44,775 nt of DNA. It comes from Spirochaetales bacterium (GTDB lineage: Bacteria; Spirochaetota; Spirochaetia; DSM-27196; SLST01). The notes under the pieces were generated by a model. That model made no database searches, was not told the DNA's origin, and worked only from the letters and a program-made list of their open reading frames with translations. Each line of letters starts with the position of its first letter. Position 1 is the stretch's first letter. Positions 5,553-22,718 of this stretch are shown here, piece after piece. The stretch spans positions 1 to 44,775 of the forward strand of contig JANQQY010000172.1 of NCBI GenBank assembly GCA_028284845.1, read 5' to 3'. The translations under genes and the position numbers were made by a program.

Positions 5553-6035
5553 CTACGCACGTCTGCTGAGGATCACTCCTACCAATTGTTCAAGGCAGAT
5601 TTCCCACCCCTCGGTAAAGCCCATCTTCGCATGCGAGTCCCTCGTCTTGATGTTCGCATGCAATGCCCGCGCTCGGTAGCGGGTCCCCGACTCCGCCGGG
5701 TCGAAGGAGATCGCCCCGGTGAAGAAGCTCGAACCCGTGGGTCGGAACCCAGGACCAAGGGCGTCGGTAAAAACCACCAGTCGATTCGGTACAAGGTAGA
5801 GGTAACACCCCGGATCCTTGCTTACATCTCCGTCCGGTGACTCGATGGCGACTGTGAACTCCCCACCCGGTTCCGGTACGGCAACGCAGCTCGCCACGCG
5901 GTAGGGCTCCGGGACGAACCACTCAGCGATCCACTCGGGATCGGTCCATCCTCGATAGAGTTCTTCGGCCTCCACGGGGACGACTCGATCAAGGATCAGA
6001 TCCGTGCTTTTCCTGAACGTAATTGGCTCACTCAT
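5553..6035 (-). CDS. SRPBCC superfamily protein (Aha1/START-like domain)
   Basis: 160-aa ORF. The ..LYRGWTDPEWIAEWF.P.. pattern is typical of Aha1-domain SRPBCC proteins. Its start overlaps the upstream gene stop by 8 nt. Confidence 0.6.
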   Translation of the reverse strand: MSEPITFRKSTDLILDRVVPVEAEELYRGWTDPEWIAEWFVPEPYRVASCVAVPEPGGEFTVAIESPDGDVSKDPGCYLYLVPNRLVVFTDALGPGFRPTGSSFFTGAISFDPAESGTRYRARALHANIKTRDSHAKMGFTEGWEICLEQLVGVILSRRA

Positions 6036-7164
6036 TGGGAACCTCCAATTCGAACGGTTCGCGGAAGATCGAGGTGCCGTTCATTCTCACTTCTATGTAA
6101 TGTGTGCCGCCGTAGAAGTTCTGGTTCTTGAACGGTTTGAAGTGGTGGGTCTTCTCAAGGCGGAGGCTTCCGCCGGCCGCAATGGTCTTGTCCGGCATTC
6201 GGAAAACCTTGTCTTTGTTGGCGCCGTTCGCCTTCCGGAACGCGATGACGTAGTTGAGCGCAAGCTTCCGAGGCTCTTTCACCGCAGACTCGAAGGAGAC
6301 GGCGAACGAGAGAGATTGCCCAAGCGAAAGGGAGCGTGGCGCTATCTCCCGCTCTGTGGCGCTGATGCCGGTAGAATCGTATCCCAACAGTTTGAGCGCC
6401 CCCTGGTGATCCTGTTTTACGAGTGTCCGGAGTGCGTGACGGCTGAGCCAACCGAGCTTCTCGTCCGCTGCGTCCGGCGCATCGTGCCATCGGCGAAGGG
6501 TAGTGACGACGATCTCCGGGTTGTCCTTTGCGATGTCATTGAGATTGTTGGCGACAGATCGGCGAACCATCAGGTTCTCGTCGTCGTAGAGTCGGTCGAG
6601 GAGCGCGATCACCGGTGCTGGATCACTCTGGAACGTCGGCAGCCGGGGAGAGAGCGGAAGCCGGGGTCGCGTCCCTTCGCTCGCGAGTCGGCGTGCGAAG
6701 GGGCTTGGATCGCGCGTGAGATCGGTGAGGAAGGTGAGCGTCTTCTCCGGATAACGAATGAGGAACGGTCTGATGTCGCCCTCCGCGGTGAATCGCTTTG
6801 TCATCTCGTACAACGCGTGCAGAGCCAGATCCGGCTCATCCATTCCATAGGAGCTCACGAACATCGTCAGTGGCATGACGTAGAAGCCCTCGTAGCCCTT
6901 GATCGCGTCTTCCTCCGGTTCCGGACCAAGCGACTTCACCAGAATAGAGACGGCGTCCTCAAAGCGCTCCGGTAGGTAGGCCGCCAGTGCATCACGAATC
7001 TTCTTGGCGCGATCTCCGTAGCTCAACGAGTCGATTCCGGTGCACGACTCGGTGAGGAATCCCTCCTGGTCAAATCCCTTCCACGCCGTTGCGACCTGCG
7101 ATCCTATGAACTCAATACGCTTCCGATTGAAGATCTCTCTGAAGAGGAAGGGTTCGTCGGCCAT
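6028..7164 (-). CDS. DNA alkylation repair-type HEAT-repeat protein (AlkC-like) with C-terminal beta-rich domain
   Basis: 378-aa ORF. The motif RRSVANNLNDIAKDNPEIV and helical repeats resemble the DNA_alkylation (AlkC/AlkD) family. The last ~110 aa are beta-rich, as in Ig-like-domain AlkC proteins. Confidence 0.55.
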   Translation of the reverse strand: MADEPFLFREIFNRKRIEFIGSQVATAWKGFDQEGFLTESCTGIDSLSYGDRAKKIRDALAAYLPERFEDAVSILVKSLGPEPEEDAIKGYEGFYVMPLTMFVSSYGMDEPDLALHALYEMTKRFTAEGDIRPFLIRYPEKTLTFLTDLTRDPSPFARRLASEGTRPRLPLSPRLPTFQSDPAPVIALLDRLYDDENLMVRRSVANNLNDIAKDNPEIVVTTLRRWHDAPDAADEKLGWLSRHALRTLVKQDHQGALKLLGYDSTGISATEREIAPRSLSLGQSLSFAVSFESAVKEPRKLALNYVIAFRKANGANKDKVFRMPDKTIAAGGSLRLEKTHHFKPFKNQNFYGGTHYIEVRMNGTSIFREPFELEVPNE

Positions 7165-7233: not shown

Positions 7234-7268
7234 GTGTGATATGTGTGATCAAATGGACTATAATCACA
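7234..7268 (+). promoter_or_regulatory. Candidate promoter and operator for the chaperone-usher cluster
   Basis: AT-rich island in a GC-rich genome. There is a perfect TATAAT at 7259-7264, with only a weak -35. GTGTGAT occurs twice in direct repeat (7234-7240, 7243-7249) and once inverted as ATCACA (7263-7268), overlapping the -10. Confidence 0.4.
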
Positions 7269-7300
7269 ACAAAACGTAGATCCATCGTTTGGAGGAGAGT

Positions 7301-7816
7301 ATGAAAGCAATACTCCGATATGTACTGATTCTCTCACTGCTCGCTGTTACGTCCGGCATCGCGTTCGCCGCGAATGGCGACACGCTCAACATTGGCGGGC
7401 AGGTTCCGCTGACGCTCGACCTTACCGTCACTGCGGACGCTTCGGCTGACAATCTCACGCTTGTTGGCACGACCTCAGGATTCAATCCCACGATTGCCGC
7501 GATCAGCATCACGACGAACAACAACGCCGGATGGGAACTCTGGGTGTTTTCTACCAATGCCGACGGTTCCGGAACGTCGATGAACAACGGCGACGCGACT
7601 CCAAGCGAGATCGCATACACGATCGAGTACAGTGGCACCGGTGGTGGAGCCTCCGCCGCCATTACCACTGCCGGGCTCAAGGTGGGTGAGAACACTGCGA
7701 CCGCGCCGGTTGCGACTCCCGAGACCGGTGATCTCTCGATCACCTACGATCAGTCGCAGACCTATCCGGCGGGCTACTATTCGGATCAGCTCACGATTGT
7801 TCTGAGGGCAAAGTAA
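7301..7816 (+). CDS. Secreted fibre subunit, spore-coat-protein-U (SCPU)/Csu-pilin-like
   Basis: ATG at 7301 is preceded by GGAGGAG (7291-7297). Signal peptide MKAILRYVLILSLLAVTSGIAFA. The protein is Thr/Gly/Ala-rich and beta-rich, the mature part has no cysteine, and the C-terminal strand motif is PAGYYSDQLTIVLRAK. Confidence 0.65.
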   Translation: MKAILRYVLILSLLAVTSGIAFAANGDTLNIGGQVPLTLDLTVTADASADNLTLVGTTSGFNPTIAAISITTNNNAGWELWVFSTNADGSGTSMNNGDATPSEIAYTIEYSGTGGGASAAITTAGLKVGENTATAPVATPETGDLSITYDQSQTYPAGYYSDQLTIVLRAK

Positions 7817-7823
7817 CCAACAC

Positions 7824-8573
7824 TTGCGATCCTCGACGACTCGGATTCTTACAGCCCTGGCGCTGGCACTGCTTGCGGCGCCTGGGCTCCTTGGCTTCAG
7901 TTTTGAGCCCATAACGCAGGACTTTGCGCCTTCCGGTGAGGGGGCGAATCACGTCTTCCGCGTGGTCAACACGACTGCCGATCGGATTGCCGTTCGCGTA
8001 TCGGTTCGGCCACGAAGGATCGAGCCGAACGGAGAAGAGATCCAGGGAAAAGAATCCGACGAGTTCGTTGTCTACCCGCGGCAGATGCTCCTTGACCCGG
8101 GTGAGAGGCGGAGCGTTCGTGTCGCGTGGAGAGGGACCGATTCCCCCGAGCGGGAGCTCTCGTTCCGCATCATCGCCGAGCAGCTTCCCGTCAATGTTGA
8201 CGAGGCTCCGGCGACTCAGGGCGGCGGAATCGTCCTCACCTATCGGTATGAAGGAAGCCTCTACGTCGTGCCACCGGGCGCTTCGCCGCAGATTCAACTG
8301 GAAACGGTGGAGTCCGCATTCTTCAACGGTCAACCCGCGCTGGGCATCACCGTCCGCAATGACGGGACGAGACATCGACTGCTCTCTAACGCGCGTGTCG
8401 AAATCTCCTCGCAGCCCGGCGGAGACCCGGTTGTGACGCTTGGACCGGAGGCGCTTCCCGGCATGAACGGCGAAAACATGCTGGCAGGCTCCACTCGTGA
8501 CTTCTATGTTCCGCTGCCGGCGGAGCTACCCGACGGATCGCTGTACGGAAGGATCGTACTCGACGAAGAGTAA
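7824..8573 (+). CDS. PapD-like periplasmic pilus chaperone
   Basis: Signal peptide (ILTALALALLAAPGLLG). Canonical chaperone pattern ..HVFRVVNTTADRIAVRVSV.. and FVVYPRQMLLDPGERRSVRVAWRG..PERELSFRIIAEQLPV. Only a TTG start is available at 7824, so the start is uncertain. Confidence 0.7.
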   Translation: MRSSTTRILTALALALLAAPGLLGFSFEPITQDFAPSGEGANHVFRVVNTTADRIAVRVSVRPRRIEPNGEEIQGKESDEFVVYPRQMLLDPGERRSVRVAWRGTDSPERELSFRIIAEQLPVNVDEAPATQGGGIVLTYRYEGSLYVVPPGASPQIQLETVESAFFNGQPALGITVRNDGTRHRLLSNARVEISSQPGGDPVVTLGPEALPGMNGENMLAGSTRDFYVPLPAELPDGSLYGRIVLDEE

Positions 8574-8575
8574 GT

Positions 8576-10924
8576 ATGCGGCACCGGCTCGCGCTCCTGC
8601 TTCTCGCAGCAACACTTCTTCCGCTCAGCGCCCAATCGACAGCCGATACGTTGCCAGCGCCCCTTCTCCTTGACGACGAGTATGTTGCGGATGCCTCCGT
8701 CACGATCGTGAACGATACCGATGTTGTCCTGAACCCCCTGGAGATCATCGAGCTTCTCTCGAGCGTTCTGAATGATCGCTTGCTCAGAGATGCCGACGGC
8801 CTCTTCCGGGAAGGCGAGCTGACCCAACCTGATGCTCTTGATCCGCTTGGCATCCAGATACGGTTCGACTGGGACGAGCTTGCCTTGATCGCGACCGTCC
8901 CACCGTTGGCCCGGCGGCCGGAGCGGATCTCGCTCCGTGGACGCCCGCCGGTCCCCCAGGGAACTCCGGTGAGTCCTGCGCCGTTCAGCATCATCGCCAA
9001 CCTCGATCTCTGGTCTCGCTACACCTACGAGAGCGCGCTCTTTGAGATTGCCCTGACGCCCGACCTGGCCGCCTCCATCTACGGTGCGGTCGTCGAGGTT
9101 CGAAGCGGGATTCGGACCGGCGACGCCCCCTTCTTCGTTGATCACGCTCGAGCCTCGTGGGACTTCGCCTCGATTGGCTACCGTATTCAGGGTGGTGATC
9201 TTGTCTACCGGGGCAGTCAGCTGCAGAATGCTACGCGCCTCACCGGCGTCGGCTTCTTTCAAGAGGACTCCATCGCGCTCCCGGGCAACGCCGTCTCCGA
9301 CGTTATAGAACGCTTCTACCTCGCCGAGGATGCGAGCGTCTCGGTTTTTGTGAACGAGTCGCGGGTTCATCGGCGAACTCTCGACGCGGGGAACTACGAA
9401 CTGAGCGACCTTCCGCTGGGAGACGGGATCAACACGATCCTGGTCGTGTGGGAAGACACCGAAGAGCGGCTTGTCGAGTTGGTCATTCCCTACGATAGCG
9501 AACTGCTGGATGCGGGCGAGTTTGACGCCGGCGTTGCTCTGGCAATCGCCGAGCTACAGTTCGCGCGTCCGGTCATCGTTGGATATCAGTACTACGGCCT
9601 CACGCCTCAGCTGACCATCGGATCTCGCCAGGGAATAGAGCTTCTCGACCTTCAGGTCGACGCCGGGCTCAATGCGACGCTCGCCACGCGTGCAGGATCG
9701 TTTATTCTGGAACCCAGCCTTGGATTTGGGCCGCAGTCGAGACTCGTTCTTGATATCCCGTTGCGGTACTCATTTCTCAACTCGAGTCCCTCCTCGTACC
9801 TCAGCTTCGGCCTCTCAGGCGCGTATCGCTCGGCCCGTGCACAAGATGGGGCGACGACCACCCACACCGTTTCCGCCAACGGTTACGTGAACTTCGCCCT
9901 CCCTGATGGATTCTCTGTGACGCCTCGACTCTCCTACGTCTACGGGCAGCTTGATAGTCCGCACGTCGTTGAGGGGCGAGTAGCGCTTCGTCGGTCACTT
10001 CGTGGTGGGTCGACCGTCTCCGCGGATCTGGGACTTCGATGGGATAGCGAGCCCTCGTTCTTGGCACGCGTGACGTATTCGGCCTCTTTTCCGGACGCTC
10101 AGCAGAATCTATTCTTGCAGCAGGATCTTGAGGCGCAGGAGCTGACTGCGTACTGGAGTCGGTATGCCGGTGAGTCGGCGCAAGACATCGACTACAGCGT
10201 CTCCGCCAAGGTGCCTGTTGATTTTGCTGAGGTCATGAACGTGAGCGGCAGAGTTGGATACATCAGCCCGTGGTTTCGAGGCAGCCTTTCGCACGGACTT
10301 ACCGGGATCGTCGAGGCTTCTGACCTTCGAAACAGCACCTCGGTTTCTGCGCAGACCGCGCTTGTCTATGCAGACGACACCTTTGGCGTGAGTCTTCCGG
10401 TAAACGACTCATTTGTGATCGTCGTTCCCGGCGAGACACTCGCCGATCAGCCCGTCCTCGTCTCCAGGTCAGGAGCACGCGCTGATCTCACGCTCGACGG
10501 CTCAAGCGGAGTCATGGGCGATCTGAGTTCGTACTCTCCCGTCGCGATTCGCGTCCAGCCCGAGGAGATCCTCTTAGGTCTCGAACAGAGCGAGCTCGTC
10601 TACGTCGTGGATCCGGGCTATCGCTCGGGCACGGTCATCCGTGCCGAACCGACGCGCAACATCTACGCCGGCGGAGTTCTGCTTGACGAGAACGATGAGC
10701 CGATCGTCTACGCGCTCGGTCGTTACGAATCCGACCTTGAAGACTCGGGCGAATTCTTCACCGACGAGGGCGGATACTTTGAGATCTACGGCCTTGGGCC
10801 AGGTCGGTACACGCTTTTGATCTCGAACGGCGCTGAGTATCGCTTTGCCGTCACGATCCCACCGGAGGCGAACGAGTACGTCGACCTAGGCGAAATCTCC
10901 CCGGCGGCAGGAGCGTCGCAATGA
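8576..10924 (+). CDS. Outer-membrane usher-like protein with C-terminal carboxypeptidase-regulatory-like beta-sandwich
   Basis: 782 aa with signal peptide MRHRLALLLLAATLLPLSAQS. It has the usher-like stretch VFVNESRVHRRTLDAGNYELSDLPLGDGINTILVVWEDTEERLVELVIPYD, then a long beta-rich middle with alternating aromatic/polar residues. C-terminal GGYFEIYGLGPGRYTLLISNG. It sits between the chaperone and the second subunit. Confidence 0.6.
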   Translation: MRHRLALLLLAATLLPLSAQSTADTLPAPLLLDDEYVADASVTIVNDTDVVLNPLEIIELLSSVLNDRLLRDADGLFREGELTQPDALDPLGIQIRFDWDELALIATVPPLARRPERISLRGRPPVPQGTPVSPAPFSIIANLDLWSRYTYESALFEIALTPDLAASIYGAVVEVRSGIRTGDAPFFVDHARASWDFASIGYRIQGGDLVYRGSQLQNATRLTGVGFFQEDSIALPGNAVSDVIERFYLAEDASVSVFVNESRVHRRTLDAGNYELSDLPLGDGINTILVVWEDTEERLVELVIPYDSELLDAGEFDAGVALAIAELQFARPVIVGYQYYGLTPQLTIGSRQGIELLDLQVDAGLNATLATRAGSFILEPSLGFGPQSRLVLDIPLRYSFLNSSPSSYLSFGLSGAYRSARAQDGATTTHTVSANGYVNFALPDGFSVTPRLSYVYGQLDSPHVVEGRVALRRSLRGGSTVSADLGLRWDSEPSFLARVTYSASFPDAQQNLFLQQDLEAQELTAYWSRYAGESAQDIDYSVSAKVPVDFAEVMNVSGRVGYISPWFRGSLSHGLTGIVEASDLRNSTSVSAQTALVYADDTFGVSLPVNDSFVIVVPGETLADQPVLVSRSGARADLTLDGSSGVMGDLSSYSPVAIRVQPEEILLGLEQSELVYVVDPGYRSGTVIRAEPTRNIYAGGVLLDENDEPIVYALGRYESDLEDSGEFFTDEGGYFEIYGLGPGRYTLLISNGAEYRFAVTIPPEANEYVDLGEISPAAGASQ

Positions 10925-11871
10925 GAGGGAAGGCGAGGGCAGCGGCGTTCGTATGCATGATCGTAGCATCCTCAGGACTCCACGCCGCCGACATCTTCCG
11001 GTTCTACGCGCCACCCGGAGGTGTCTATGGCAATGCGGCTTTCGAGCGCGATGAGACGATCACCGTCTCAGTGACGATCGAGCACGAAGGCGTCGCGATT
11101 TCCGATTGGTTTCTGGCAATCACCACAGGCGGCGCCGGCTCATTCGAACCTCGCGAGATGTCCCAGAGCACCGACACGCTTGAGTATCAGATCTATGGGA
11201 GCACGCCGCCGTCGGCAGATATTCTCAAGGCTCCACCGGATGTTCTCACCGCCGCCAACGTCGTAACTTCGGGAGACTTCGCCTCCGTCGCCGCCACGAC
11301 GGAACGAGTCGCGTTCACGCTCTACTTCTCCATACCGTCGGCACAGTTCGTCCCATCGGGCGAGTACACGGACACCGTCTCGCTCGAACTCTATACCGGC
11401 GAGTTTGGTTCTCCGGGGACCCACGTTCTCGTTGACACCGTGGATGTCACCGTCACCGGCCGAATGGCTCAGATCGTCGACCTCTACGCAGATCGAGAGC
11501 CCGGGATCCGCTCGCTCGACCTGACGGCGACAGCCACTAACTTCCTGATCGCGACCGTCTTTGAACGAAGCAACTCGTTCACCGGCTACACCGTGACGGT
11601 GCAGAGCGTCAATCTGGCTGCAGACCTCTCCGGCGCTACCGGCCCCTTCTTTGCGCACACCACAGCATCCGACACACTCGACTATTCCCTTACCTACGGC
11701 GGCGCACCGGTCGCCGGATGGGCCGGTGGTTCTGCGACGTTGACCGACTCAGCGGCCACCACCGCGCCGGAGTGGATCGACCGCGAACTCCGGATCTCGT
11801 ACAGCGGCTCTTCCACGCTCGCGGCGGGCGACTATGAGGACAGGCTCGTCATCACGATTACGGCGAAGTAA
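10921..11871 (+). CDS. Secreted two-domain SCPU-like subunit (candidate tip/adhesin subunit)
   Basis: ATGA overlap with the usher stop. Signal peptide (AAAFVCMIVASSGLHA). It carries an internal strand motif VPSGEYTDTVSLELY (about nt 11353-11394) and a terminal AAGDYEDRLVITITAK, both resembling the C-terminus of the 7301-7816 subunit. Confidence 0.6.
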   Translation: MRGKARAAAFVCMIVASSGLHAADIFRFYAPPGGVYGNAAFERDETITVSVTIEHEGVAISDWFLAITTGGAGSFEPREMSQSTDTLEYQIYGSTPPSADILKAPPDVLTAANVVTSGDFASVAATTERVAFTLYFSIPSAQFVPSGEYTDTVSLELYTGEFGSPGTHVLVDTVDVTVTGRMAQIVDLYADREPGIRSLDLTATATNFLIATVFERSNSFTGYTVTVQSVNLAADLSGATGPFFAHTTASDTLDYSLTYGGAPVAGWAGGSATLTDSAATTAPEWIDRELRISYSGSSTLAAGDYEDRLVITITAK

Positions 11872-11968
11872 GTGAAGCGTCACTACGCAAAGAACCGCAG
11901 AGGATCTGGATTCCGCGCGTGCGCGACGGGGTGGGCCTGTGCGTCAACGGGTTCCGGACCCGATCCCG

Positions 11969-13105
11969 CTATCGTTCCTCCATCGGGACCAGGCGGCGCT
12001 GCTCGTGGCCGACATATTGCGCCTTGGGGCGGTAGATCCGGTTGTCCACGCGCTGCTCGAGGATGTGGCTGAGCCACCCCGAGACGCGTGCCATGGCGAA
12101 GATGGGAGTGAAGAGCTTCGTTGGGATCCCCAGAACCCGATAGACGGCGCCGGAGAAGAAGTCGACGTTTGGATAGATCGGCTTCCCCTTCTCTTCCATC
12201 CGCTCGCGGAAGGTCGTCTCGACCTCCTTCAGAATCTCGTAGTACTTCCAGTCGCTCTTCTTCTCGCTCAGGTCCTTCAGGTACTCTTCCATCACGAAGC
12301 TTCGTGGGTCCTTTGCTCGGTAGACGCGGTGACCCATACCCATGACCTTCTGCTTCTTGTCGAGTGCCGTATGGACCCAATCACGCGCCGCATCTTTGCT
12401 TCCAATCGAATCGACCATCTCCATGACTTTCTCATTCGCGCCGCCGTGGAGGCTCCCGTAAAGAGATCCAACGGCAGCTGATATTGAGCAGTAGCAGGTC
12501 GACATGGTGCTCGCGACCACACGTGCGGTGAAGGTGCTCGCGTTGAAGCTGTGCTCGGCATGAAGGATGAGCGCCTTGTCCATGACTTCGCCCTCGAAGG
12601 GATCCGGTTCTTCACCCCGCAGCATATAGAGGAAGTTCGCACCATGAGAGAGGTCCTTCCGTGGCGGGAGATACTCCTTGCCCTCCTGAAATCGCTGGTA
12701 GGTTGCGACGACGGTTGCGATCTCTGCGATCTGGTGCAGCGTATCGCGGCAGTTGCAATGAGGTCCGTGGTGAATACGGTGTTCCACGTAGCTTGAGAGG
12801 TAGGAGACCACCGATTGGAGAAGCTCCATGGGATGGGCATCTTTCGGAAAGTCGCGAATCATGTGAATGACCGGTTCCGGGAGGTCGCGCGCGTTTCGCA
12901 TCTTCGCGGAGAAGACGGAGAGCTGTTCTCGCGTGGGTAGCTCTCCGTAGAGCAAGAGGTATGTCACCTCCTCAAAGGTGCAATGCTCGACCAGATCGGT
13001 GATCGTGTAGCCCATGTAGTAGAGCTGACCGGCTTCTCCATCTATTCGGCAGATCTTGCTCTCCGCCGCGACTACGCCTTCAAGTCCCTTCGCAAACTCA
13101 GCCAT
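11969..13105 (-). CDS. gltA: Citrate synthase (short, ~378-aa type)
   Basis: MAEFAKGLEGVVAAESKICRIDGEAGQLYYMGYTI.., catalytic-region motifs GPLHGGANE-like (GSLHGGANE) and MGMGHRVYR..DPR. Confidence 0.9.
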   Translation of the reverse strand: MAEFAKGLEGVVAAESKICRIDGEAGQLYYMGYTITDLVEHCTFEEVTYLLLYGELPTREQLSVFSAKMRNARDLPEPVIHMIRDFPKDAHPMELLQSVVSYLSSYVEHRIHHGPHCNCRDTLHQIAEIATVVATYQRFQEGKEYLPPRKDLSHGANFLYMLRGEEPDPFEGEVMDKALILHAEHSFNASTFTARVVASTMSTCYCSISAAVGSLYGSLHGGANEKVMEMVDSIGSKDAARDWVHTALDKKQKVMGMGHRVYRAKDPRSFVMEEYLKDLSEKKSDWKYYEILKEVETTFRERMEEKGKPIYPNVDFFSGAVYRVLGIPTKLFTPIFAMARVSGWLSHILEQRVDNRIYRPKAQYVGHEQRRLVPMEER

Positions 13106-13119
13106 CGTGTCTCCTTCGC

Positions 13120-14556
13120 TTACAGCGCGTGGATTGCGCGCTTATCTGTTGCCAGGGCGGCCTCTTTGACCGCCTCTGTGAGTGTGGGGTGTGCATGTAC
13201 GGTTCGTGCGATGTCCTCGGCGCTCCCGCCAAACTCCATCACGGCGACGATCTCGCTGATGAGGTCACTCGCCCACGGTCCAACGATCTGGGCTCCAAGT
13301 ACTTGGTCGGTCTCTGCGTCAGCGAGGATCTTTACAAAACCACCGGTCGACGCCATTGCAACCGCGCGTCCGTTGCCGCCGAAGTTGAAGCTGCCCTTCT
13401 TGTAGGCGACTCCCGCTTCCTTCAACTCCTCTTCGCTCTTCCCGACCGTCGCAGCTTCCGGCCAGGTGTAGACGACGCCTGGTATGGTGTCGTAGTTCAC
13501 GTGCCCGGCGTGTCCGGCAATGATCTCCGCAACGGCAACGCCCTCGTCTTCTGCTTTGTGCGCGAGCATCGGTCCGTGAACGAGATCGCCAATGGCAAAG
13601 ATGCCTGGGACGGAGGTCTGCAGGTGGTGATCCACCTCTATGCGGCCGCTCTTCTCGTTGAGAGTGATCCCGAGATCATCCAACCCCGCACCATCGTAGT
13701 ATGGCCTGCGGCCGACCGCAACCAAGACTCTCTCGGCCGGGATCGTGAGTTCCTTTCCATCCGGATCCTCTACCGTTACGCCCTTTTTCTTCCCCTTCGC
13801 GAGCCCGGTGACTTTGTGACCAAGCTTGAACTCAAGACCCTGCGAGCCAAGCTCGCGCTTCATCACCTTGGCGACCTGCTTGTCCCATCCTGGGAGGATT
13901 TCGCTCATGATCTCAATGACGGTGACCTTCGCTCCCAGTCTTGCCCAGACGCTTCCAAGCTCCAATCCGATTGCGCCGGCGCCCACGACAACCATCTGTT
14001 TGGGGACCGAGTCGAACTCGAGCGCCTCGGTTGAACTCACCACGTAGTCGCCATCAAAGGGGAGGAAGGGGAGCTCGATGGGGACGCTTCCGGTGGCGAG
14101 GATGATTGAGTCTGCCTCGAGGGTGGTCGCCTTGGAGTCGTCGCCCGCGCCTTCGGCCGCTACTGCTACCTTTCCTGGAGCGACCAGACGTGCGATCCCA
14201 CCGATGACGTCGACCTTTCGGCCCTTCATGAGACCGTTCAGGCCACCGGTCATCTTGTTCACGACGCCCTGCTTGCGCTCGATCATCTTGGGGATGTCGA
14301 GTTGCGGCGTGGCAACCGTGATGCCGTGATCCGCAAATTCGTGAACGGCCTTCGCGTAGAGCTCGCTCGAGTCGAGCAGTGCCTTGGACGGGATGCAGCC
14401 GACGTTCAGGCAGGTGCCTCCCAACAGGGTCTTCCCTTGCGCGTCGGATCGTTTTTCCACAATGCCGGTCTTCAGGCCGAGCTGCGCCGCGCGGAGAGCG
14501 GCGACGTAGCCGCCCGGGCCGGCGCCCAGCACGAGAACATCGTATCGGTCAGCCAA
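13120..14556 (-). CDS. lpdA: Dihydrolipoyl dehydrogenase (E3)
   Basis: 478 aa with FAD fold YDVLVLGAGPGGYVAA, redox-active disulfide GGTCLNVGCIPSK, NAD fold VVVGAGAIGLELG and C-terminal HAHPTLTEA. Confidence 0.93.
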   Translation of the reverse strand: MADRYDVLVLGAGPGGYVAALRAAQLGLKTGIVEKRSDAQGKTLLGGTCLNVGCIPSKALLDSSELYAKAVHEFADHGITVATPQLDIPKMIERKQGVVNKMTGGLNGLMKGRKVDVIGGIARLVAPGKVAVAAEGAGDDSKATTLEADSIILATGSVPIELPFLPFDGDYVVSSTEALEFDSVPKQMVVVGAGAIGLELGSVWARLGAKVTVIEIMSEILPGWDKQVAKVMKRELGSQGLEFKLGHKVTGLAKGKKKGVTVEDPDGKELTIPAERVLVAVGRRPYYDGAGLDDLGITLNEKSGRIEVDHHLQTSVPGIFAIGDLVHGPMLAHKAEDEGVAVAEIIAGHAGHVNYDTIPGVVYTWPEAATVGKSEEELKEAGVAYKKGSFNFGGNGRAVAMASTGGFVKILADAETDQVLGAQIVGPWASDLISEIVAVMEFGGSAEDIARTVHAHPTLTEAVKEAALATDKRAIHAL

Positions 14557-14569
14557 ACTGAACTCCTCT

Positions 14570-15850
14570 CTACAGACCGAGCAGGAGGCGCGTTGGATCC
14601 TCGATCTGGGCCTTGATTCGGCCCAGGAAGAGCACGGCCTCCCTGCCGTCGATCATCCGGTGGTCATAGGTCAGTGCAAGATACATCATTGGTCGGATCT
14701 GGACCTCGTCGCCAATCGCCACCGGCCGCTTCTGGATCGAGTGCATCCCCATGACCGCCGTCTGCGGGGGACTCGGAATGGGCGTGGAGAGGAGGCTGCC
14801 AAAGACGCCGCCGTTACTGATCGTGAATGTCGCGCCGACCATCTCATCGGGTTTTAGACGTCGCTTGTTGGCGCGTTCGCTGAAGTCGATGATCTGCTTC
14901 TCTACGTCGGCGAAGCTCATCATCGCTACGTCCTTGAGCACAGGGGTCAAGAGCCCCTTCTCGCTTGAGAGGGCGACACCAACGTTGACGTAGTCGTTGA
15001 AGAGAACGTCGCTCCCGTCCAAGTAGCCGTTCACCGCCGGGAACTCTTGAAGGGCGATCTGGGCCGCCTTCACAAAGAAGCTCATAAATCCGAGCCGCAC
15101 GCCGTGCTGGTCGGTGAATGTTTCTTTGTACTTCGCCCGGATCCCCATCACGGCGCTCATGTCGACTTCGTTGAAGGTCGTGACATGTGCCGAACTCTGT
15201 CGCGAGTAGACAAGGTTCTCCGCGATCCGCTTTCGAAGGTTGCTCAGGGGTTCCCGTCGTTGTCTCTCGTTCGTCGGCATCGCCGGAGCGCTTAGTGCTG
15301 CAGGCATGGAGCCGGACGAGCCGCTCCCACCGCCGGATTGCCCGCGCGCAGCTTTCTCCGCGTCTGCCTTGGTGATTCGCCCGCCGGGTCCCGTGCCTTT
15401 GATCGTGGACGCGTTGAGTCCGTGATCCTCCACGACTCGTCGTGCCGCCGGGGAGAGCTGGTCGGCGGGTGCCGGAGATTTTATACTCGCCGCTGCCGCC
15501 GGAGCGTCCGCCGGCTCGGGCTCAGGCGGCGGGCTCGCGACTGGCTCCGCAGGCTTCTTTGTGTCTGCCGTGGATTCCGGTTCGGCCGAAGGCGTGGGTG
15601 CCTTTGCAGCCGCACCATCAGAATCGATCTGTCCAACAACCTGCCCAACCTCGACTTCATCACCCTCCGCTGCGCCATGATGGAGGACGCCGCTTGATGG
15701 GCTTGGAACGCCAAGGGTTGCCTTGTCGGTCTCGAGTTCGAAGATCTCCTCACCCTCGCTTACTGATGAGCCGTCTTCCTTGAGCCACGCCGCGAGGATG
15801 CCGCTCGAAACAGACTCACCGATCTCCGGAACCGGGATGTCACTCTTCAT
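14570..15850 (-). CDS. sucB: 2-oxoglutarate dehydrogenase E2, dihydrolipoyllysine-residue succinyltransferase
   Basis: ATG at 15850 preceded by AGGTGG. Lipoyl domain ..[14 protein letters not shown].., Ala/Pro-rich linker, E3-binding [14 protein letters not shown] and catalytic DHRMIDG motif. The track ORF N-terminal extension (15851-15937) overlaps the sucA 3' end and was dropped. Confidence 0.9.
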
Positions 15851-15858
15851 GTTGCCAC

Positions 15859-18759
15859 CTATGAAAATGCCTTGGTGAGGAACCGCTCGAGTTCCTCTTG
15901 ATGTTGTCCGTGTGATCCGGTCGCGGGGCTTGGACACGCATCGCGTCCAACGTACTCGAGTCGGCGATCCGGGAGAAGCGACTCAATGCGATCCCTCACA
16001 AACGACCATCCGCCGTGATTCTGGGCTTCTTCCTGGACCCACCGGATGCTCTGTGCGCCAAGATGCGGCTCGATCGCGGCTTTGAGACGATCGGCGTCAA
16101 ATGGGTAGAACTGTTCGAGCCTGATGATCGTCGTTCGCTTGTCCTCACGCTCATTCCTTCGAGCGTCAAGGTCGTAGTAGACCTTGCCCGAACAGATCAG
16201 GAGGTTCTCCGTCTTCTCCGCCGGAGTCGGATCATTGAGGATCGTCTGATAGTACCCTGCGGCGAATTCCGTTCGATTCGAGACGCACGCCTTGTTTCGC
16301 AGGAGGCTCTTGGGAGTCATCAGCACGAGCGGCTTTCGGAAGGGTTGAACCATCTGGCGCCGGAGCACGTGAAAGTATTGGGCGGGCGTTGATGGATAGC
16401 AGACCTGCATGTTGTTGTCCGCACACAGTTGTAAGAATCGCTCGAGGTGGGCGCTTGAGTGTTCAGGGCCCTGACCCTCGTAGCCATGGGGCAGAAGCAT
16501 GACCAGTCCCGACTGCCGGAACCACTTGCTTTCACCGGCGGCGATAAACTGGTCGATCACCACCTGCGCGCCGTTTACGAAGTCACCGAACTGCGCCTCC
16601 CACAAAACGAGAATGTTCGGCTGGGCAAGCGAGTATCCATAGTCGAAGGCGAGAACGGCGTACTCAGAGAGCGGACTGTCGTAGACACTGAAGTAGCCCT
16701 GATCCACGGAGAGATCACGGAGCGGCACATGCATTCGAGGGGTCCCGCTCTTGACGTCCCACCAGACGGCGTGCCGCTGACTGAATGTGCCGCGGCCAGA
16801 GTCTTCCCCGCTCAGCCGTATGGGGTGACCATCCATCAGCAGTGAGCCGAACCCGAGACTCTCGGCGAAAGCCCAGTCGATTCGGTCCCCGGCGTTCCAG
16901 CGGTCGGCCCTGTCCTTCACGAATCGGACGAGCTTTGGATGAAGATTGAAGTCATCCGGAACGTTTGTCAGAACGTCAGCAACATGCTGGAGCCGATCGT
17001 TCGACACGCCGGTCTCCACCGGTTCAAAGGTGAAGTCGTGCCCGTATTCCTTCCACTCGCCGGTCTCGAATGCGTCGTCGATGTTCGGCTTCTGTCCGCC
17101 TCGCGCCTTTGCGAGCTCCTCCTTGAGCACATCCACATACGTCTTCTTGAATGCGGCCTGGTCTTCTGAGGAGAACGACCCCTCTTTCGCGAGGCGCTCA
17201 CCGTAGAGGGCCGTGACGCTCGGATGATTCTTGATCATCGCGTACATCATTGGATGGCTGAATGAGGGCTCATCGGCTTCGTTGTGTCCGAGTCTTCGGT
17301 AGCACTGAATGTCAACGACGGCGTCGTAGCCGAACTTCTGCCGGTAGCGGAGCGCCAGATCGATGCCTCGGACGACAGCCTCCGGATCATCCCCGTTAAC
17401 GTGGAAGATTGGGCACGGGAGAGACTTCGCGATATCGGTCGCGAAGAACGTGCTCCGTGCGTCCCGACTCGCCGTTGTGAAGCCAATCTGATTGTTGACG
17501 ATGATGTGCACCGTGCCGCCGGTTCGGTAGCCACGGAGCTGACTCAGGTTGAAGGTCTCTGCGACGACACCCTGACCGCTGAACGCCGCGTCTCCATGGA
17601 TGAGGACCGGGAGAACCTTCTTCCGGTTCTTGTCGCCGCGCCTGCGCTGAATGCCGCGTGCCTTTCCTTCCACTACACCGTCTACGGCTTCAAGGTGGCT
17701 GGGATTCGCGACAAGACTGATGTGAATCGATTTGCCGCCCGCGATCTCAAGGTCGAAGCTGTGCCCAAGGTGGTATTTGACGTCACCGCTGCCGCCGTAG
17801 GTCTGTGGCTGGTAGCTATCCTCGAACTGAGCGAAGACCTCGACGCCCGGCTTCCGCAGGGCGTTCGTGAAGACATTGAGCCGGCCGCGGTGAGCCATCC
17901 CTACCACGATCTCCTGGAGCCCGTGGTTCGCTGCGGAGTCGATGAGGTAGCGCATCGCGGGAATGAGCGACTCGCCGCCCTCGAGCGAGAACCGTTTCTG
18001 GCCTATGTAGCTCGACTGCAAAAATCGTTCGAACTCTTCCGCTTTGATGAGGTCCTTCTGAAATCGCATCTTGTGCTGAGTCGTCCAGATGCGTCGTGAT
18101 TCGGGCCGCTCAAGCTTCTCGATGAGCCAGCGGCGCATCGGTTTGTTCTGAATGTGTAGGATCTCCACGCCGAGCGTTCCGCAGTAGATCTCCTTCATCT
18201 CGGCGAGGATGTTGCGCAGGGTGTCCGGCTCCGACTTCAGGTAGCGACCGGCAGAGAACTCTCGGTCGAGATCCGACTCATCGAGTCCGAACTCCTCCAG
18301 GGAGAGTGCGTCGTATGTGCCCTCCATGGTGTAGAACATGTATCTGAGCGCAGGGGTGCTGTAGTCTTCGAGTGGATTGATATTGGCGTGGATATAGCCG
18401 ATGTCCCGGTAGGCCCAGAGGAGGCTATTGACCCGCGACTGCTTGTAGGCGTGGCTAGAGTCGCCGGTAGGCTCGCGGTGAATGCCGGGCATGTGACCGG
18501 GGAGCGATCCGTGGGGAGCAAAACCCGCTTCGTCGTCGTTCTCTGCGAGCCGTGTTGTAGAGCGGACGCCCTTGAGTTCGAGACCCATGTCGGCGACGCC
18601 GCCGTTGTCGAGTTTTGCGAAGTAGGTCTGCCACTCGGTATCGACGCTGGTTGGGTCGACCTTCCAGCTCTCATACAGTTCGTCAACGAACCGTGCATTT
18701 GTCAGATCAAGTTGATTCGCATTCACGGCTAAACCTCTGCCAGTAAGGAGTATAAGCAT
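15859..18759 (-). CDS. sucA: 2-oxoglutarate dehydrogenase E1 component
   Basis: 966-aa ORF with the N-terminal ..[27 protein letters not shown] typical of SucA and a ThDP-binding region (..[13 protein letters not shown]..). An alternative GTG start at 18726 has a better-placed purine-rich SD. Confidence 0.92.
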
Positions 18760-20489: not shown

Positions 20490-20962
20490 CAGGAATCCCC
20501 ACCTTCCGTGAACGCGACATTGATCTCGATCGAACCGATCTCCGAAATGAAGCTGAGGCAGATCGTCGGGATCGACAGGAAGTCAACCGTCATGTCGGAA
20601 CCGCTGAACACAGCCGGTGGCGTGAGGTGAATGATCATGTCCTCGCCCGCCAGCTGGATGCTCGCCTGACCGGTTATCATGTTGGCTATCTCGCTGACCG
20701 CGCTGTTGGTGAGCTTCTTCAGCTCGGATGGAAGCTTGTTTGGAATCATTGCCTTCGTAACGGCGAAGGCGAAGTTCGAGTCCATACTGTAGACGACCTG
20801 ACCTCTGATTCCGCCTGTGATTCCTATGACAATCGATATGGGGAGACTCGGGACCGGTGCCGCCTTCTTGGTGAGGCTCTTTCTCGTCAGGTTGATCCCA
20901 ATCTCCTGAGTGAAGACGGTGGTGGCGCCTCGTATAAAGACGTTCGCGTACTCAGCTTTCAC
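20489..20962 (-). CDS. cheX: CheX/CheC-family CheY-P phosphatase
   Basis: 157 aa with a single CheC-type motif, SAVSEIANMITGQ...LTPP. Size and single site fit CheX. ATGA overlap with cheY and GTGA overlap with the kinase gene. Confidence 0.75.
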   Translation of the reverse strand: MKAEYANVFIRGATTVFTQEIGINLTRKSLTKKAAPVPSLPISIVIGITGGIRGQVVYSMDSNFAFAVTKAMIPNKLPSELKKLTNSAVSEIANMITGQASIQLAGEDMIIHLTPPAVFSGSDMTVDFLSIPTICLSFISEIGSIEINVAFTEGGDS

Positions 20963-22617
20963 TTCACTCTCCTCCGTCTCGCCCCGCGTGCCGGCACGGT
21001 GATGCGAAAGGTCGTCCCTCGTCCGGGCCGGCTCTCAACGGCGATCTTCCCACCCAGTCGCTGGACCGCCATCTGAACGGCATTGAGTCCCACACCACGC
21101 CCGGAGACCATTGTCACCTCGTCCGCAGTGCTGAACCCGGCGCTGAACAGGTATCCAAGGAGCTGCGACCTGGTCGGCTCCGTGCCGTTGGTGATCATAC
21201 CCAGTTCGCGTGCTTTCGCCTCTACCGCGGCGAACGATATCCCCCGGCCATCATCGGTGAAGCTCACCGTCAGATCGTCCTGCTCCTTGTCAATGTCGAT
21301 AGTTATCGTTCCCAGCTCAGACTTCCCTTTCATCTCCCGTTCCGCCGGGCTCTCAACGCCGTGATCAACCATGTTCCTGGCGATATGCGTCATTGAGTTC
21401 ACAAGGTCCTCGTAGTGCTCGGGAAGGACTCGGAACTCACCCCCTCGAATGGAAACGGGCTTCACTCGTCTTCCACGTCGTCCCGCCAGGTCGGCGACCA
21501 GCTGTGGAAACCGTGAGAAGAGAGACGCGAATGGGACGCTTCGTAGCTGCTCCATCGCGCGGACGAGCGCTCGATCTGATCCGTACTTTCCGCGGACGTA
21601 TTGCTCAACCTTCCGGACGCTCACCACCGGAATGCTGATGGTCGAAAGGTCGTTGATCCACTGGTCGCCAAGGGTCTCTGCAATCGCGTTGTACTCTTCG
21701 TAGAACTGCCGCTTGAAGACGAACACCTCGGAGGAGAGATCAATCTCACCCTGCAGGATAGGAAGTGCGATCAACTGATCCTCGAAGTCGTGTGCGACGG
21801 TCGCCGTGCGGGTGAATCCAAGGAAGTTCGCATTCCCCTTGAACGTATGAACCTGCGCAGCCAGCTTCTCCGCCGTCTCGTCCGGAATCGCGCTGGTGCG
21901 ATGGCTCGCCACGGCGTCCAAGACCTGGAAGAGCTCGTTCGCCTCTTCGACATAACTTGCGAAGTAGGTCTTGTTCGAAACCACCTTCAGGATCAGATCG
22001 CGTCGGCGGTTCTGCTCCGCGACCTCGGCCTCCAGGCGCTCCTGGTCTGTGATGTCGGTGAGGGCGAGCAGCACGGTCGCGTCGTCGATGGCTCGATAGT
22101 CAACGCTGATCACCCGCTCGCCAACCTCAACTCGTTTCTCGAGAAGGTCAAAGATCACGTCGGCCTTGGCATTCCCCTTGAAGAAGAGGTCGAGCCCTTC
22201 GACGAACTCCTGCCGTTCGGAATCCTCAATAAAGAGCAGGTCCGGCACTCGCCTCCCGCCTATTTCGCCTCCAAAGATCGTTTCGGCAGGCTTCGAGTAC
22301 TCCGGCTGGACAAGGTAGTCAGAGCCGAAGGTGAGGAAGCCATCGCCGGTCACATCCAGCATGCTCTGAATCGCTGAGGTGCGTTCCGCGACACGGCCTT
22401 CCAGATCGCCGGTGACGGTAACGAGTCGGTCTTCTCGAACACCAATGAGGTAGCCAACGCCGCCAAGGATCGGAATCGCGAGCGCGATGATGATAAGAAG
22501 AGGCCCAGTTGAAGCGTTAAAAGCAAAGACAAGAACTGAGGCCACGGCGGGGAACATGGCTCCAAACGCAGTCCCAAAAAGCGCGAATCGTCTGCTCTGC
22601 TTCCTGCCTTCGTTCAT
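20959..22617 (-). CDS. Membrane-anchored CheA-like histidine kinase (2 TM - PAS-like - HPt - HATPase; no CheW-like P5 domain evident)
   Basis: 552 aa. Two N-terminal TM helices (FALFGTAFGAMFPAVASVLVFAF; LLIIIALAIPILGGVGYLIGV) and a PAS-like segment. HPt motif QVHTFKGNANFLGF. CheA-type N box MTHIARNMVDHGVE, G1 TDDGRGI and G2 SGRGVGLNAV. It ends right after the ATPase domain. Confidence 0.75.
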   Translation of the reverse strand: MNEGRKQSRRFALFGTAFGAMFPAVASVLVFAFNASTGPLLIIIALAIPILGGVGYLIGVREDRLVTVTGDLEGRVAERTSAIQSMLDVTGDGFLTFGSDYLVQPEYSKPAETIFGGEIGGRRVPDLLFIEDSERQEFVEGLDLFFKGNAKADVIFDLLEKRVEVGERVISVDYRAIDDATVLLALTDITDQERLEAEVAEQNRRRDLILKVVSNKTYFASYVEEANELFQVLDAVASHRTSAIPDETAEKLAAQVHTFKGNANFLGFTRTATVAHDFEDQLIALPILQGEIDLSSEVFVFKRQFYEEYNAIAETLGDQWINDLSTISIPVVSVRKVEQYVRGKYGSDRALVRAMEQLRSVPFASLFSRFPQLVADLAGRRGRRVKPVSIRGGEFRVLPEHYEDLVNSMTHIARNMVDHGVESPAEREMKGKSELGTITIDIDKEQDDLTVSFTDDGRGISFAAVEAKARELGMITNGTEPTRSQLLGYLFSAGFSTADEVTMVSGRGVGLNAVQMAVQRLGGKIAVESRPGRGTTFRITVPARGARRRRVK

Positions 22618-22718
22618 GGCCCGTCTCTGACGCTAGTCTTCGACGATCGTAGTGTCAACGACTTTTTCCACCGGCTCGGGCCGCTGGCATGGGCCAAGCG
22701 CTTTGTATACGATCAGGC

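Follow-up and report, generated by a model that had tools for sequence, protein, structure and literature searches.

We describe a cluster of four genes, all on the forward strand, in a bacterium of the Spirochaetota. It very probably forms a single operon coding for an archaic (sigma-type) chaperone-usher pilus system that is self-sufficient. The type of machine is already known, but we found no published description of an archaic chaperone-usher machine for this phylum. A preliminary description, made from the letters of the DNA, had read the cluster as subunit, chaperone, usher and two-domain subunit of the sigma/archaic class, and this reading is sustained by matches to PapD_N, FimD/PapC, SCPU and CsuE/CfaE and by the homology of the first and last gene products.

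Gene layout and conservation of the quartet

In the ORF list of the window, i.e., the whole 44,775-nucleotide stretch of DNA analyzed, the cluster occupies positions 7301–11871 (Table 1). The reading frame of ORF1 is open from 7289, with its 171 aa counted from the ATG at 7301, which has a GGAGG Shine-Dalgarno sequence 5 nt upstream. Direct reading of the junctions bore out the close packing noted earlier: TAA, 7 nt and TTG between ORF1 and ORF2 (this TTG start being without a clear Shine-Dalgarno sequence), TAA, 2 nt and ATG between ORF2 and ORF3, and an ATGA overlap between ORF3 and ORF4. Upstream of ORF1, the divergent intergenic region is AT-rich and contains a promoter-like site, which we list only as a candidate since the number of such sites in this region equals the shuffle expectation. 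A public protein collection contains gene calls for all four products (171, 249, 782 and 316 aa), and the peptide motifs quoted in the preliminary description are all present in the translations. The signal peptides it assigned to the four products are likewise legible in the sequence, where a hydrophobic stretch comes after a basic n-region. The mature proteins are free of cysteine, as had been stated for the subunits, the only one in the quartet being C12 inside the ORF4 signal peptide.

Table 1. Coordinates of the genes, domains and candidate elements of the cluster
Feature	Size or residues	Position	Strand	Basis
Candidate promoter-like site	GTGATA, 17 nt, TATAAT	7236..7264	+	10/12 matches
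ORF1, putative major pilin, SCPU-related family without curated model	171 aa	7301..7816	+	Shine-Dalgarno and ATG; hhalign
ORF1 N-terminal extension before the pilin-domain core, proposed donor strand	24–39	7370..7417	+	
ORF2, periplasmic PapD-like chaperone, archaic type	249 aa	7824..8573	+	PapD_N; CsuC alignment
ORF3, outer-membrane usher	782 aa	8576..10924	+	AF2 model, Foldseek, phmmer/BLASTP, tblastn
Usher N-terminal periplasmic domain (boundaries approximate)	~23–120	8642..8935	+	Model DSSP; Foldseek alignment to full-length FimD
Usher beta-barrel, plug-interrupted, 6 + 18 = 24 long strands	~130–606	8963..10393	+	DSSP strand list, our count
Usher plug (middle) domain, after barrel strand 6	~244–306	9305..9493	+	Six model strands
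Usher C-terminal domain 1	~612–690	10409..10645	+	Model strands; A1 profile
Usher C-terminal domain 2, seven-strand sandwich	~696–774	10661..10897	+	Sub-threshold CarboxypepD_reg similarity
ORF4, two-domain subunit, candidate tip adhesin	316 aa	10921..11871	+	AF2, Foldseek, SCPU
ORF4 N-domain, SCPU domain	23–184	10987..11472	+	SCPU 37.3 bits vs gathering score 22.4
ORF4 C-domain, ORF1-type pilin domain without G strand	185–316	11473..11868	+	hhalign

A survey of synteny, suggested in the preliminary description, found the quartet to be collinear, as far as the contigs permit, in 14 related loci (12 genome loci together with L013 and L015; in all L001–L013 and L015). These have different flanks and protein identities of 35–83%, and the collinearity indicates that the arrangement is not due to chance. 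Every relative is a metagenome-assembled genome, and those with a taxon label all belong to Spirochaetota, in keeping with the spirochaete lineage guessed at earlier. The expectation that routine annotation would leave most of the cluster hypothetical holds for the ORF1 homologues, none of whose 68 clusters is named, but not for those of ORF4, most of which are called ‘spore coat protein U domain-containing protein’, or for two usher homologues named ‘outer membrane usher protein’ by JGI. In profile-HMM searches, also proposed at that stage, PapD_N (ORF2) and SCPU (ORF4) scored above gathering, CarboxypepD_reg remained sub-threshold in ORF3, and searches of Pfam and NCBIfam with ORF1, and of Pfam Usher and NCBIfam with ORF3, returned no match.

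The chaperone and the usher

ORF2 matches PapD_N with 32.4 bits against a Pfam gathering score of 23 and is 38% identical to an annotated Leptolyngbya fimbrial chaperone (E 8e-45), while its best sequence match in the PDB is CsuC (5d6h, E 0.019). In the alignment with the latter, P85 and R115, both invariant in 12 homologues, correspond to P59, the universal chaperone proline, and R89, a carboxylate anchor found in archaic and alternative chaperones and specific to them (PMC4654587). Thus, the earlier identification as a pilus chaperone stands, but the type is not the ‘classical’ one then named, Arg115 being a mark of the archaic type.

The assignment of ORF3 to the ushers is drawn from transitive homology and predicted structure. 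It is linked to the PF00577 usher P0011 (phmmer E 3e-23, BLASTP E 1e-27) and, by tblastn, to annotated Vibrio and Leptolyngbya ushers. Its template-free AF2 model (pLDDT 80.9) finds as best Foldseek matches PapC and FimD, the latter from end to end (3rfz_B, E 1e-31, TM 0.59, ~830 columns), and the modeled barrel, whose 24 strands agree with the earlier expectation of a beta-barrel, matches the PapC and FimD translocation pores (2vqi, 3ohn). Between barrel strands 6 and 7 the model inserts the plug, which is what the ‘usher-like stretch’ of the preliminary description more exactly represents: it matches the Caf1A middle domain (3fcg) with E 0.19 as a single sequence and, when two profiles are used, with 1.3e-3 and 8.9e-4, and the PDB matches of an usher profile built from spirochaete sequences alone are limited to this domain.

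Toward the C-terminus, positions 557–724 of profile A1, which contained an Azospirillum usher, align to FimD 617–777. The last domain resembles CarboxypepD_reg, as had been observed, albeit below threshold (PF13620, 25.3 bits, the gathering score being 32.3). The accompanying claim that this is an unusual ending for an usher did not hold: the PF00577 ushers of Vibrio and Leptolyngbya show this sub-threshold match in the same place, and the alignment of ORF3 with the Azospirillum usher extends through C-terminal domain 2. By these sequence comparisons, such a C-terminus is normal in the usher clade of ORF3.

The two subunits

Homologues of ORF4 fall into 66 clusters, with PF05229 in nearly all. 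Its AF2 model (pLDDT 94) finds with Foldseek a CfaE-CfaB fusion (3e-11), CsuE (1.5e-8), CfaE, FimH, LpfD and CsuA/B. In the N-domain of the model, another long strand (169–182) comes after the F-strand motif PSGEYTDTVSLEL (strand 147–159). The C-domain matches SCPU only weakly (14.6 bits, E 0.045) and aligns with the ORF1 families by hhalign with E 9.9e-14 and 5.6e-27. Conversely, ORF1 gives hhalign probabilities of 96–99.7% against this domain (E 3.7e-9 to 5.6e-27); hence, on profile evidence, ORF1 and the ORF4 pilin domain are homologous. A G-x-Y-x-D strand motif lies at the C-terminus of both, but in the ORF4 N-domain another strand comes after it. ORF1 ends in PAGYYSDQLTIVLRAK directly after the F-strand motif, and the ORF4 C-domain likewise ends directly after that motif, the last strand of the model (309–315) lying at the C-terminus of the protein; both thus lack a G strand. 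The connection of ORF1 to SCPU is indirect and weak, with no direct match to the SCPU model and a link via the ORF4 C-domain (E 0.045) and to CupE (8cio, E 0.033).

The hhalign pilin-domain match of ORF1 begins at residue 38–40 and is preceded by an extension (ANGDTLNIGGQVPLTL) in which N25, G26, T28, N30, I31, G32, G33, V35 and L37 are fully or almost fully conserved, and whose hydrophobic-x-hydrophobic-x-G-x-V pattern returns in the consensus of the extended family. We propose that this extension might function as a donor strand. The N-terminal strand of ORF4, DIFRFYAPPGG, is also strongly conserved, which speaks against a tip role, since such a strand would be superfluous in a subunit that acts only at the tip. 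Between the window and L013, the major pilin is the fastest-diverging product (58% identity as compared to 95% for citrate synthase), as expected because a fibre subunit would be exposed.

Related systems, alternative readings and proposed assembly

The csu genes of Acinetobacter baumannii (archaic/sigma), ordered csuA/B-A-B-C-D-E, share with the quartet SCPU-type subunits, the order of major pilin, chaperone, usher and tip subunit, and a two-domain subunit (CsuE, matched by the ORF4 model) encoded directly after the usher, in addition to the conserved proline and arginine of CsuC. The spirochaete cluster differs in having four genes rather than six, without CsuA/CsuB adaptor genes, in its host phylum, in its very low sequence identity (CsuC at E 0.019 only, CsuA/B unfound by sequence), and in an ORF1 that the Pfam SCPU model does not recognize. 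The minimal four-gene content recurs in the class 5 fimbriae CFA/I of enterotoxigenic E. coli (alternative/alpha; cfaABCE), which comprise chaperone, major pilin, usher and a two-domain tip adhesin, whose gene comes after that of the usher. In the Foldseek search, the ORF4 model matched CfaE-CfaB and CfaB-CfaB structures best; however, the first two genes of CFA/I are in reverse order, its usher clade and subunit families (not SCPU) differ, and there is no detectable sequence similarity to the quartet. The roles of the Csu subunits have been described (PMC4654587, PMC12996565). The Pseudomonas aeruginosa archaic system CupE, a biofilm-associated thin zigzag fibre (PMC12996565), provides the sole PDB match of the extended ORF1-type profile, its rod subunit (8CIO) aligning weakly (E 0.033) over the C-terminal half including the G-x-Y-x-D-T-L strand.

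The closest non-spirochaete relatives that we found are unstudied clusters on plasmids of Leptolyngbya sp. BL0902 (NZ_CP046158) and Vibrio alginolyticus (NZ_CP046807) and on Azospirillaceae replicons, which belong to the same usher clade and are related to the cyanobacterial CccS/CccP/Slr0019 system. Their chaperones are 37–38% identical and their ushers 24–26% over 88–94% of the length, with the same CarboxypepD_reg-like domain, and their small subunits, annotated ‘hypothetical’, match the ORF1-type profile at 1e-8 to 1e-12. Subunits, chaperone and usher are laid out in Vibrio and Leptolyngbya as in the quartet, and in Vibrio a ~290-aa two-part subunit follows the usher, overlapping its stop. 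Unlike the spirochaete quartet, which is chromosomal, these two are plasmid-borne, the Vibrio cluster has a second pilin and a second chaperone, and that of Leptolyngbya has no subunit gene after the usher; further, the ushers of these relatives pass PF00577, whereas ORF3 does not.

The same machinery could instead build a coat or capsule-like polymer, e.g., around resting or round-body forms, after the models of Myxococcus spore coat protein U and Yersinia Caf1, rather than discrete adhesive pili. The subunit family is indeed named for a spore-coat protein, and the plug of the Caf1A capsule usher supplies the sole PDB match of the spirochaete usher profile. The Mcu clusters of Myxococcus xanthus also combine SCPU-family subunits, a PapD-like chaperone and an usher, but their product belongs to the spore coat of a bacterium that sporulates, and spirochaetes are not known to do so. 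Moreover, the subunit after the usher has two domains, and the tip adhesins CsuE, CfaE, FimH and LpfD are matched by its model, a trait of tipped pili and not of capsule polymers. Csu and CupE, the characterized archaic systems whose structures have been solved, are both pili (PMC12996565). We accordingly regard a surface layer as improbable. It is still less probable that the system mainly serves to secrete ORF1 and ORF4, which would then modify or decorate another appendage or the matrix, as proposed in a single preprint for a Synechocystis system whose secreted products, AdhA and minor pilins, are said to remodel type IV pili (bioRxiv 10.1101/130278). Cyanobacterial clusters are among the closest relatives in the plasmid collection, but the open-ended pilin architecture of ORF1 and the ORF4 C-domain and the conserved N-terminal extension are expected of self-polymerizing subunits, and no type IV pilus genes were found among the annotated ORFs of the window. 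Although a deletion in the related locus L014 fuses the pilin to the usher C-terminus and the chromosomal context of the quartet differs among genomes, the idea that the cluster is an inactive remnant of an operon gained by horizontal transfer is very hard to reconcile with four ORFs that are intact in this cluster and in 13 further loci, with identities as low as 35%, and with invariant diagnostic residues, a GC content equal to that of the window around it, coupled junctions and an intact Shine-Dalgarno sequence.

For the favored pilus system, we propose that all four products, judging from their N-termini, are exported via Sec, and that in the periplasm the ORF2 chaperone would capture ORF1 and ORF4, whose pilin domains end at the F strand, by donating its conserved G1 strand (LTYRYEG), with Arg115 anchoring the subunit C-terminal carboxylate as in CsuC. 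The ORF3 usher, with its predicted barrel, plug, N-terminal domain and two C-terminal domains, would recruit the chaperone-subunit complexes. ORF4 probably enters first and comes to lie at the fibre tip, its pilin domain acting as strand acceptor and its N-terminal SCPU domain being self-complete; ORF1 would then polymerize by donor-strand exchange through its conserved N-terminal extension. The product would most likely be a thin Csu/CupE-like fibre, which might serve the spirochaete in attachment and in cell-to-cell or biofilm cohesion.

Gene layout, chaperone and usher

The quartet consists of a putative major pilin (ORF1), a chaperone (ORF2), an usher (ORF3) and a two-domain subunit (ORF4), and is bounded upstream by a divergent gene and downstream by a convergent citrate synthase gene. 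Its junctions read TAA-7 nt-TTG between ORF1 and ORF2, TAA-2 nt-ATG between ORF2 and ORF3, and an ATGA overlap between ORF3 and ORF4. Because a GGAGG box lies 5 nt before the ATG at 7301, we place the start of ORF1 there and not at the TTG at 7289. Gene calls of precisely 171, 249, 782 and 316 aa are found in the public protein collection. As read from the sequence, all four products begin with a basic start followed by a hydrophobic stretch. Every peptide motif quoted in the preliminary description was recovered in the translations, and its statement that the mature subunits are free of cysteine holds, the sole cysteine in the four proteins being C12 within the ORF4 signal peptide. A scan for terminators and promoters gave results no better than shuffled sequences, and an Rfam scan of the whole window returned no RNA family. 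A search for a compositional signal of horizontal transfer found none, with the GC content of the quartet (0.56–0.62) being that of the window.

Genes of the quartet and annotated neighbors in the window
Feature	Positions	Strand	Length and remarks
Divergent upstream ORF	6028–7164	−	378 aa
ORF1	7301–7816	+	171 aa
ORF2	7824–8573	+	249 aa, TTG start
ORF3	8576–10924	+	782 aa
ORF4	10921–11871	+	316 aa
Citrate synthase gene	11969–13105	−	
Oxidative TCA-cycle block	11969–18759	−	
CheA-like histidine kinase gene	20959–22617	−	
Sulfatase gene	22689–24074		

The N-terminal domain of ORF2 is recognized by the Pfam PapD_N model with 32.4 bits (gathering score 23), bearing out its earlier description as a PapD-like chaperone; no Pfam model recognizes the second domain. 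Its best sequence match among solved structures is CsuC, the archaic chaperone of the Acinetobacter Csu pilus (E 0.019). In this alignment P85 of ORF2, the putative kink proline of strand D1, coincides with Pro59 of CsuC, the sole residue invariant across the whole chaperone superfamily, and R115, inside the aligned segments SFRIIAEQLPV / SYRLIVDELPI, coincides with Arg89, a carboxylate anchor that archaic and alternative chaperones possess and classical ones lack (PMC4654587). Both residues are invariant in 12 homologues, as is the putative G1 strand, LTYRYEG; the domain-2 anchors of CsuC, Arg174 and Tyr196, are not alignable to ORF2. The two matches and their invariance identify ORF2 as an archaic-type chaperone and not as one of the "classical" pattern previously read in it.

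ORF3 shows no match to the Pfam Usher family (PF00577) at E ≤ 1 and none in NCBIfam, and the curated Usher threshold is not reached. Its relationship to ushers emerges from pairwise searches: phmmer relates it to a PF00577-positive Azospirillum usher (P0011; E 3e-23, 26% identity), to which BLASTP aligns residues 97 to 776, and tblastn recovers, across 88–94% of the query, annotated plasmid-borne ushers of Vibrio alginolyticus and Leptolyngbya, both of which pass PF00577. The template-free AlphaFold2 model (pLDDT 80.9) retrieves FimD over its full length in Foldseek (E 1e-31, TM 0.59, about 830 columns); PapC and the PapC and FimD pores on their own rank next. The DSSP strand order of the model comprises 6 long strands, a six-strand insert at residues 244–306, 18 long strands and two sandwich domains. 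The predicted structure accordingly displays the usher topology, namely a 24-strand barrel whose sixth and seventh strands are separated by a plug, with one domain on the N-terminal side and two on the C-terminal side, in keeping with the usher barrel anticipated in the preliminary description. The stretch that was there called usher-like is indeed usher sequence and can be specified as the plug, matching the middle domain of Caf1A (3fcg).

In the PDB, a profile built from spirochaete ushers alone matches nothing but the Caf1A plug. We discount the FimD sequence match of our first usher profile as independent evidence because that profile included the Azospirillum usher; the match is lost with the spirochaete-only profile. 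Matches of ORF3 to Autotransporter (E 0.047) and to PDB entries for BMC-shell proteins (E roughly 0.1–0.5) are attributed to chance, given the structural match to FimD.

The C-terminal domain of ORF3 resembles CarboxypepD_reg (PF13620) with a score of 25.3 bits, below the threshold of 32.3, and had been regarded as a non-standard usher terminus. The same sub-threshold match occurs at the same position in the Vibrio and Leptolyngbya ushers, and the Azospirillum usher alignment spans the domain. Since ushers from all three share it, sequence comparison indicates that this is the normal second C-terminal domain of the usher clade to which ORF3 belongs, and no peculiarity of ORF3. The nearest ushers to ORF3 adjoin subunits resembling the spore coat protein U family (SCPU, PF05229) in cyanobacteria, Vibrio and alphaproteobacteria, a setting that indirectly favors a putative place of ORF3 in the sigma clade of the usher phylogeny (Nuccio and Baumler classification).

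The two subunits and the wider pilin family

As a whole, ORF4 matches SCPU with 44.1 bits, consistent with the two-domain subunit proposed earlier; when it is split, the N-domain (residues 23–184) scores 37.3 bits and the C-domain (185–316) 14.6 bits, the gathering score being 22.4. Its AlphaFold2 model (pLDDT 94) has its best PDB matches by Foldseek in the CfaE–CfaB and CfaB–CfaB fusions, with further matches to the Csu tip adhesin CsuE (6fjy, E 1.5e-8), CfaE, FimH, LpfD and self-complemented CsuA/B. This resemblance to chaperone–usher pilins and adhesins supports an Ig-like subunit fold.

ORF1 has no match in Pfam, NCBIfam or PDB sequences, and all 68 clusters of its homologues are unnamed or "hypothetical". 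From residue 38–40 to its end, it is homologous to the C-domain of ORF4 in profile–profile comparison (96% probability, E 3.7e-9; further comparisons gave E 9.9e-14 and 5.6e-27). SCPU membership is thus direct for ORF4 and, for the major pilin, would be indirect, through its homology to the ORF4 C-domain. The expectation in the preliminary description that routine annotation would leave most of the system hypothetical is borne out for ORF1 homologues but not for those of ORF4, which are already labeled SCPU, nor for some of the ushers, which are named as such.

The subunits contain three copies of the motif G-x-Y-x-D-x-L/V-x-I/V: at residues 158–171 of ORF1, and at 147–160 and 303–316 in the N- and C-domains of ORF4, respectively. 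ORF1 and the ORF4 C-domain stop 3–4 residues past this F-strand motif, whereas in the ORF4 N-domain it is followed by a loop and then a long strand (169–182). Because a further strand follows the motif only in the N-domain, this domain would have an in-cis strand that both pilin domains lack, a pattern which, as read from sequence and model, is what donor-strand complementation predicts. Ahead of its core, ORF1 bears a 16-residue extension, ANGDTLNIGGQVPLTL, which is almost invariant, and its hydrophobic-x-hydrophobic-x-G-x-V pattern is seen again in the consensus of distant relatives. This extension is our candidate for the donor strand.

Like CsuE, ORF4 is a two-domain subunit encoded after the usher, its gene overlapping the ORF3 stop codon, and has its pilin domain at the C-terminus; we infer that it sits at the fibre tip. 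The mature N-terminus of ORF4, DIFRFYAPPGG (residues 24–34, window 10990–11022), varies hardly at all among 40 homologues, and the model predicts a strand there with confidence. A conserved N-terminal strand is something a tip subunit would not need, and it leaves a loose end in the tip role: if this segment acts as a donor strand, ORF4 would not strictly be a tip subunit.

An exhaustive search with the ORF1-family profile yielded 648 representatives (clusters at 50% identity) from several phyla at E ≤ 1e-3. These include some 18 near relatives with E under roughly 1e-28 and a large shell of proteins of 150–180 aa at 1e-15 to 1e-8. A scan of 41 sequences, ORF1 and 40 members of the shell, gave three weak SCPU matches and no NCBIfam family. 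The few named members of the family are a Halobacteriovorax "fimbrial protein" and one that JGI calls a "spore coat protein U-like protein". The sole PDB match of the family profile (E 0.033) is 8cio, the rod of the Pseudomonas CupE pilus (PMC12996565). The small "hypothetical" genes beside the Vibrio and Leptolyngbya ushers match the same profile at 1e-8 to 1e-12, and the spirochaete chaperone profile matches the Leptolyngbya chaperone at 9e-59, the pairwise identity with ORF2 being 38%. We do not claim a cyanobacterial origin of the quartet on this account, because alphaproteobacterial chaperones are equally close to ORF2.

Distribution, conservation and genomic setting

A genome scan recovered 12 loci, all labeled as Spirochaetales, Spirochaetaceae or Spirochaeta MAGs, and the survey of synteny suggested in the preliminary description found the order ORF1-ORF2-ORF3-ORF4 in 12 of 12 by tblastn, as far as the contigs reach. 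Named homologues of ORF1, ORF3 and ORF4 are likewise all from Spirochaetota, except one labeled just "bacterium". Judging from these relatives, the organism of the window is very probably a spirochaete. In the closest relative (L013, a 5.55-Mb metagenomic contig) the quartet at 8730–13293 lies in a neighborhood like that of the window, bordered on one side by genes for AHSA1 and an unknown protein of 380 aa, and on the other by those for citrate synthase, Lpd and 2-oxoglutarate dehydrogenase; in another locus (L015) it is flanked by unrelated genes. Between the window and L013, identity rises from 58% in ORF1 through 71% in ORF3 and 73% in ORF2 to 83% in ORF4, whereas citrate synthase reaches 95% and Lpd 86%. 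Hence, in this pair, the rod subunit ORF1 is the fastest-evolving of the four and ORF4 the slowest, with all four evolving much faster than the flanking housekeeping genes, a ranking consistent with an exposed rod and a tip under functional constraint.

One lineage (L014; JGI 3300071166, contig Ga0612021_0046, 5856–7984) has a 382-aa ORF that fuses an ORF1-like segment (25–156) to usher residues 561–776. It is followed by an intact ORF4 homologue (P0064, found on 83 contigs) with the ATGA overlap kept. The fusion looks like an internal deletion that took out the chaperone and the greater part of the usher but spared the two-domain subunit.

Upstream of the operon, the product of the divergent ORF has no Pfam match; this gene stands beside the quartet only in L013 (66% identity) and, being absent from the other loci, probably does not belong to the system. 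The block directly downstream codes for citrate synthase and dihydrolipoamide dehydrogenase; judging from synteny with L013, it also includes the genes for the E2 and E1 components of 2-oxoglutarate dehydrogenase. The spirochaete genome here carries an oxidative TCA-cycle block. Farther along, a CheA-like histidine kinase with Hpt and HATPase_c domains adjoins a sulfatase gene, and the remaining annotated ORFs of the window are ordinary transport and metabolic genes.

Proposed assembly and comparison with archaic pili

The Csu paradigm (PMC4654587, PMC12996565) serves as the model for how the quartet might operate, and by analogy with it we propose both donor-strand complementation and the order of assembly. 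All four products would be exported by Sec, and ORF2 would capture the subunits by donor-strand complementation, with Arg115 as the carboxylate anchor, and hand them to the ORF3 usher. ORF4 would enter first and thereby become the fibre tip, after which ORF1 would polymerize via donor-strand exchange. This would yield a thin fibre that serves in attachment and holds biofilms together.

In Acinetobacter and Pseudomonas, archaic chaperone–usher pili serve as biofilm fibres; the quartet works like these archaic systems (Csu, CupE) and by most tests is one of them. With respect to the comparison with the Mcu spore-coat system of Myxococcus, none of the annotated ORFs of the window is a sporulation gene, and sporulation is not known in spirochaetes. 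The known appendages of Spirochaetota are periplasmic flagella; we know of no chaperone–usher fimbriae described in this phylum, and among the papers searched none connects chaperone–usher or SCPU proteins with spirochaetes. The clusters most closely related to the quartet, as yet unstudied, belong to cyanobacteria, Vibrio and Azospirillaceae. In contrast to Csu and CupE, it is a minimal set of four genes without adaptor subunits, its usher does not reach the Pfam threshold and its major pilin lies outside the curated models. It also occurs in Spirochaetota, a phylum absent from the published list for archaic chaperone–usher pili, which names Proteobacteria, Cyanobacteria and Deinococcus-Thermus (PMC4654587). 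On balance, we lean slightly toward the view that this is the first chaperone–usher fibre lineage of Spirochaetota, with a rod built from an SCPU-related pilin family that has no curated model.

Genome surveys with Pfam and NCBIfam models will miss or under-call such systems because of the unmodeled pilin family and the sub-threshold usher. With four genes and no cysteines in its mature subunits, the quartet is a compact archaic system that could suit reconstitution. The conservation of an intact system in many uncultured Spirochaetota extends the archaic range to a further phylum. Should the fibres be produced, annotation would be capturing far too little of the diversity of archaic pili, and free-living spirochaetes would possess an adhesive or biofilm fibre on the outside of the cell, a candidate mechanism by which Spirochaetota may attach in their habitats.
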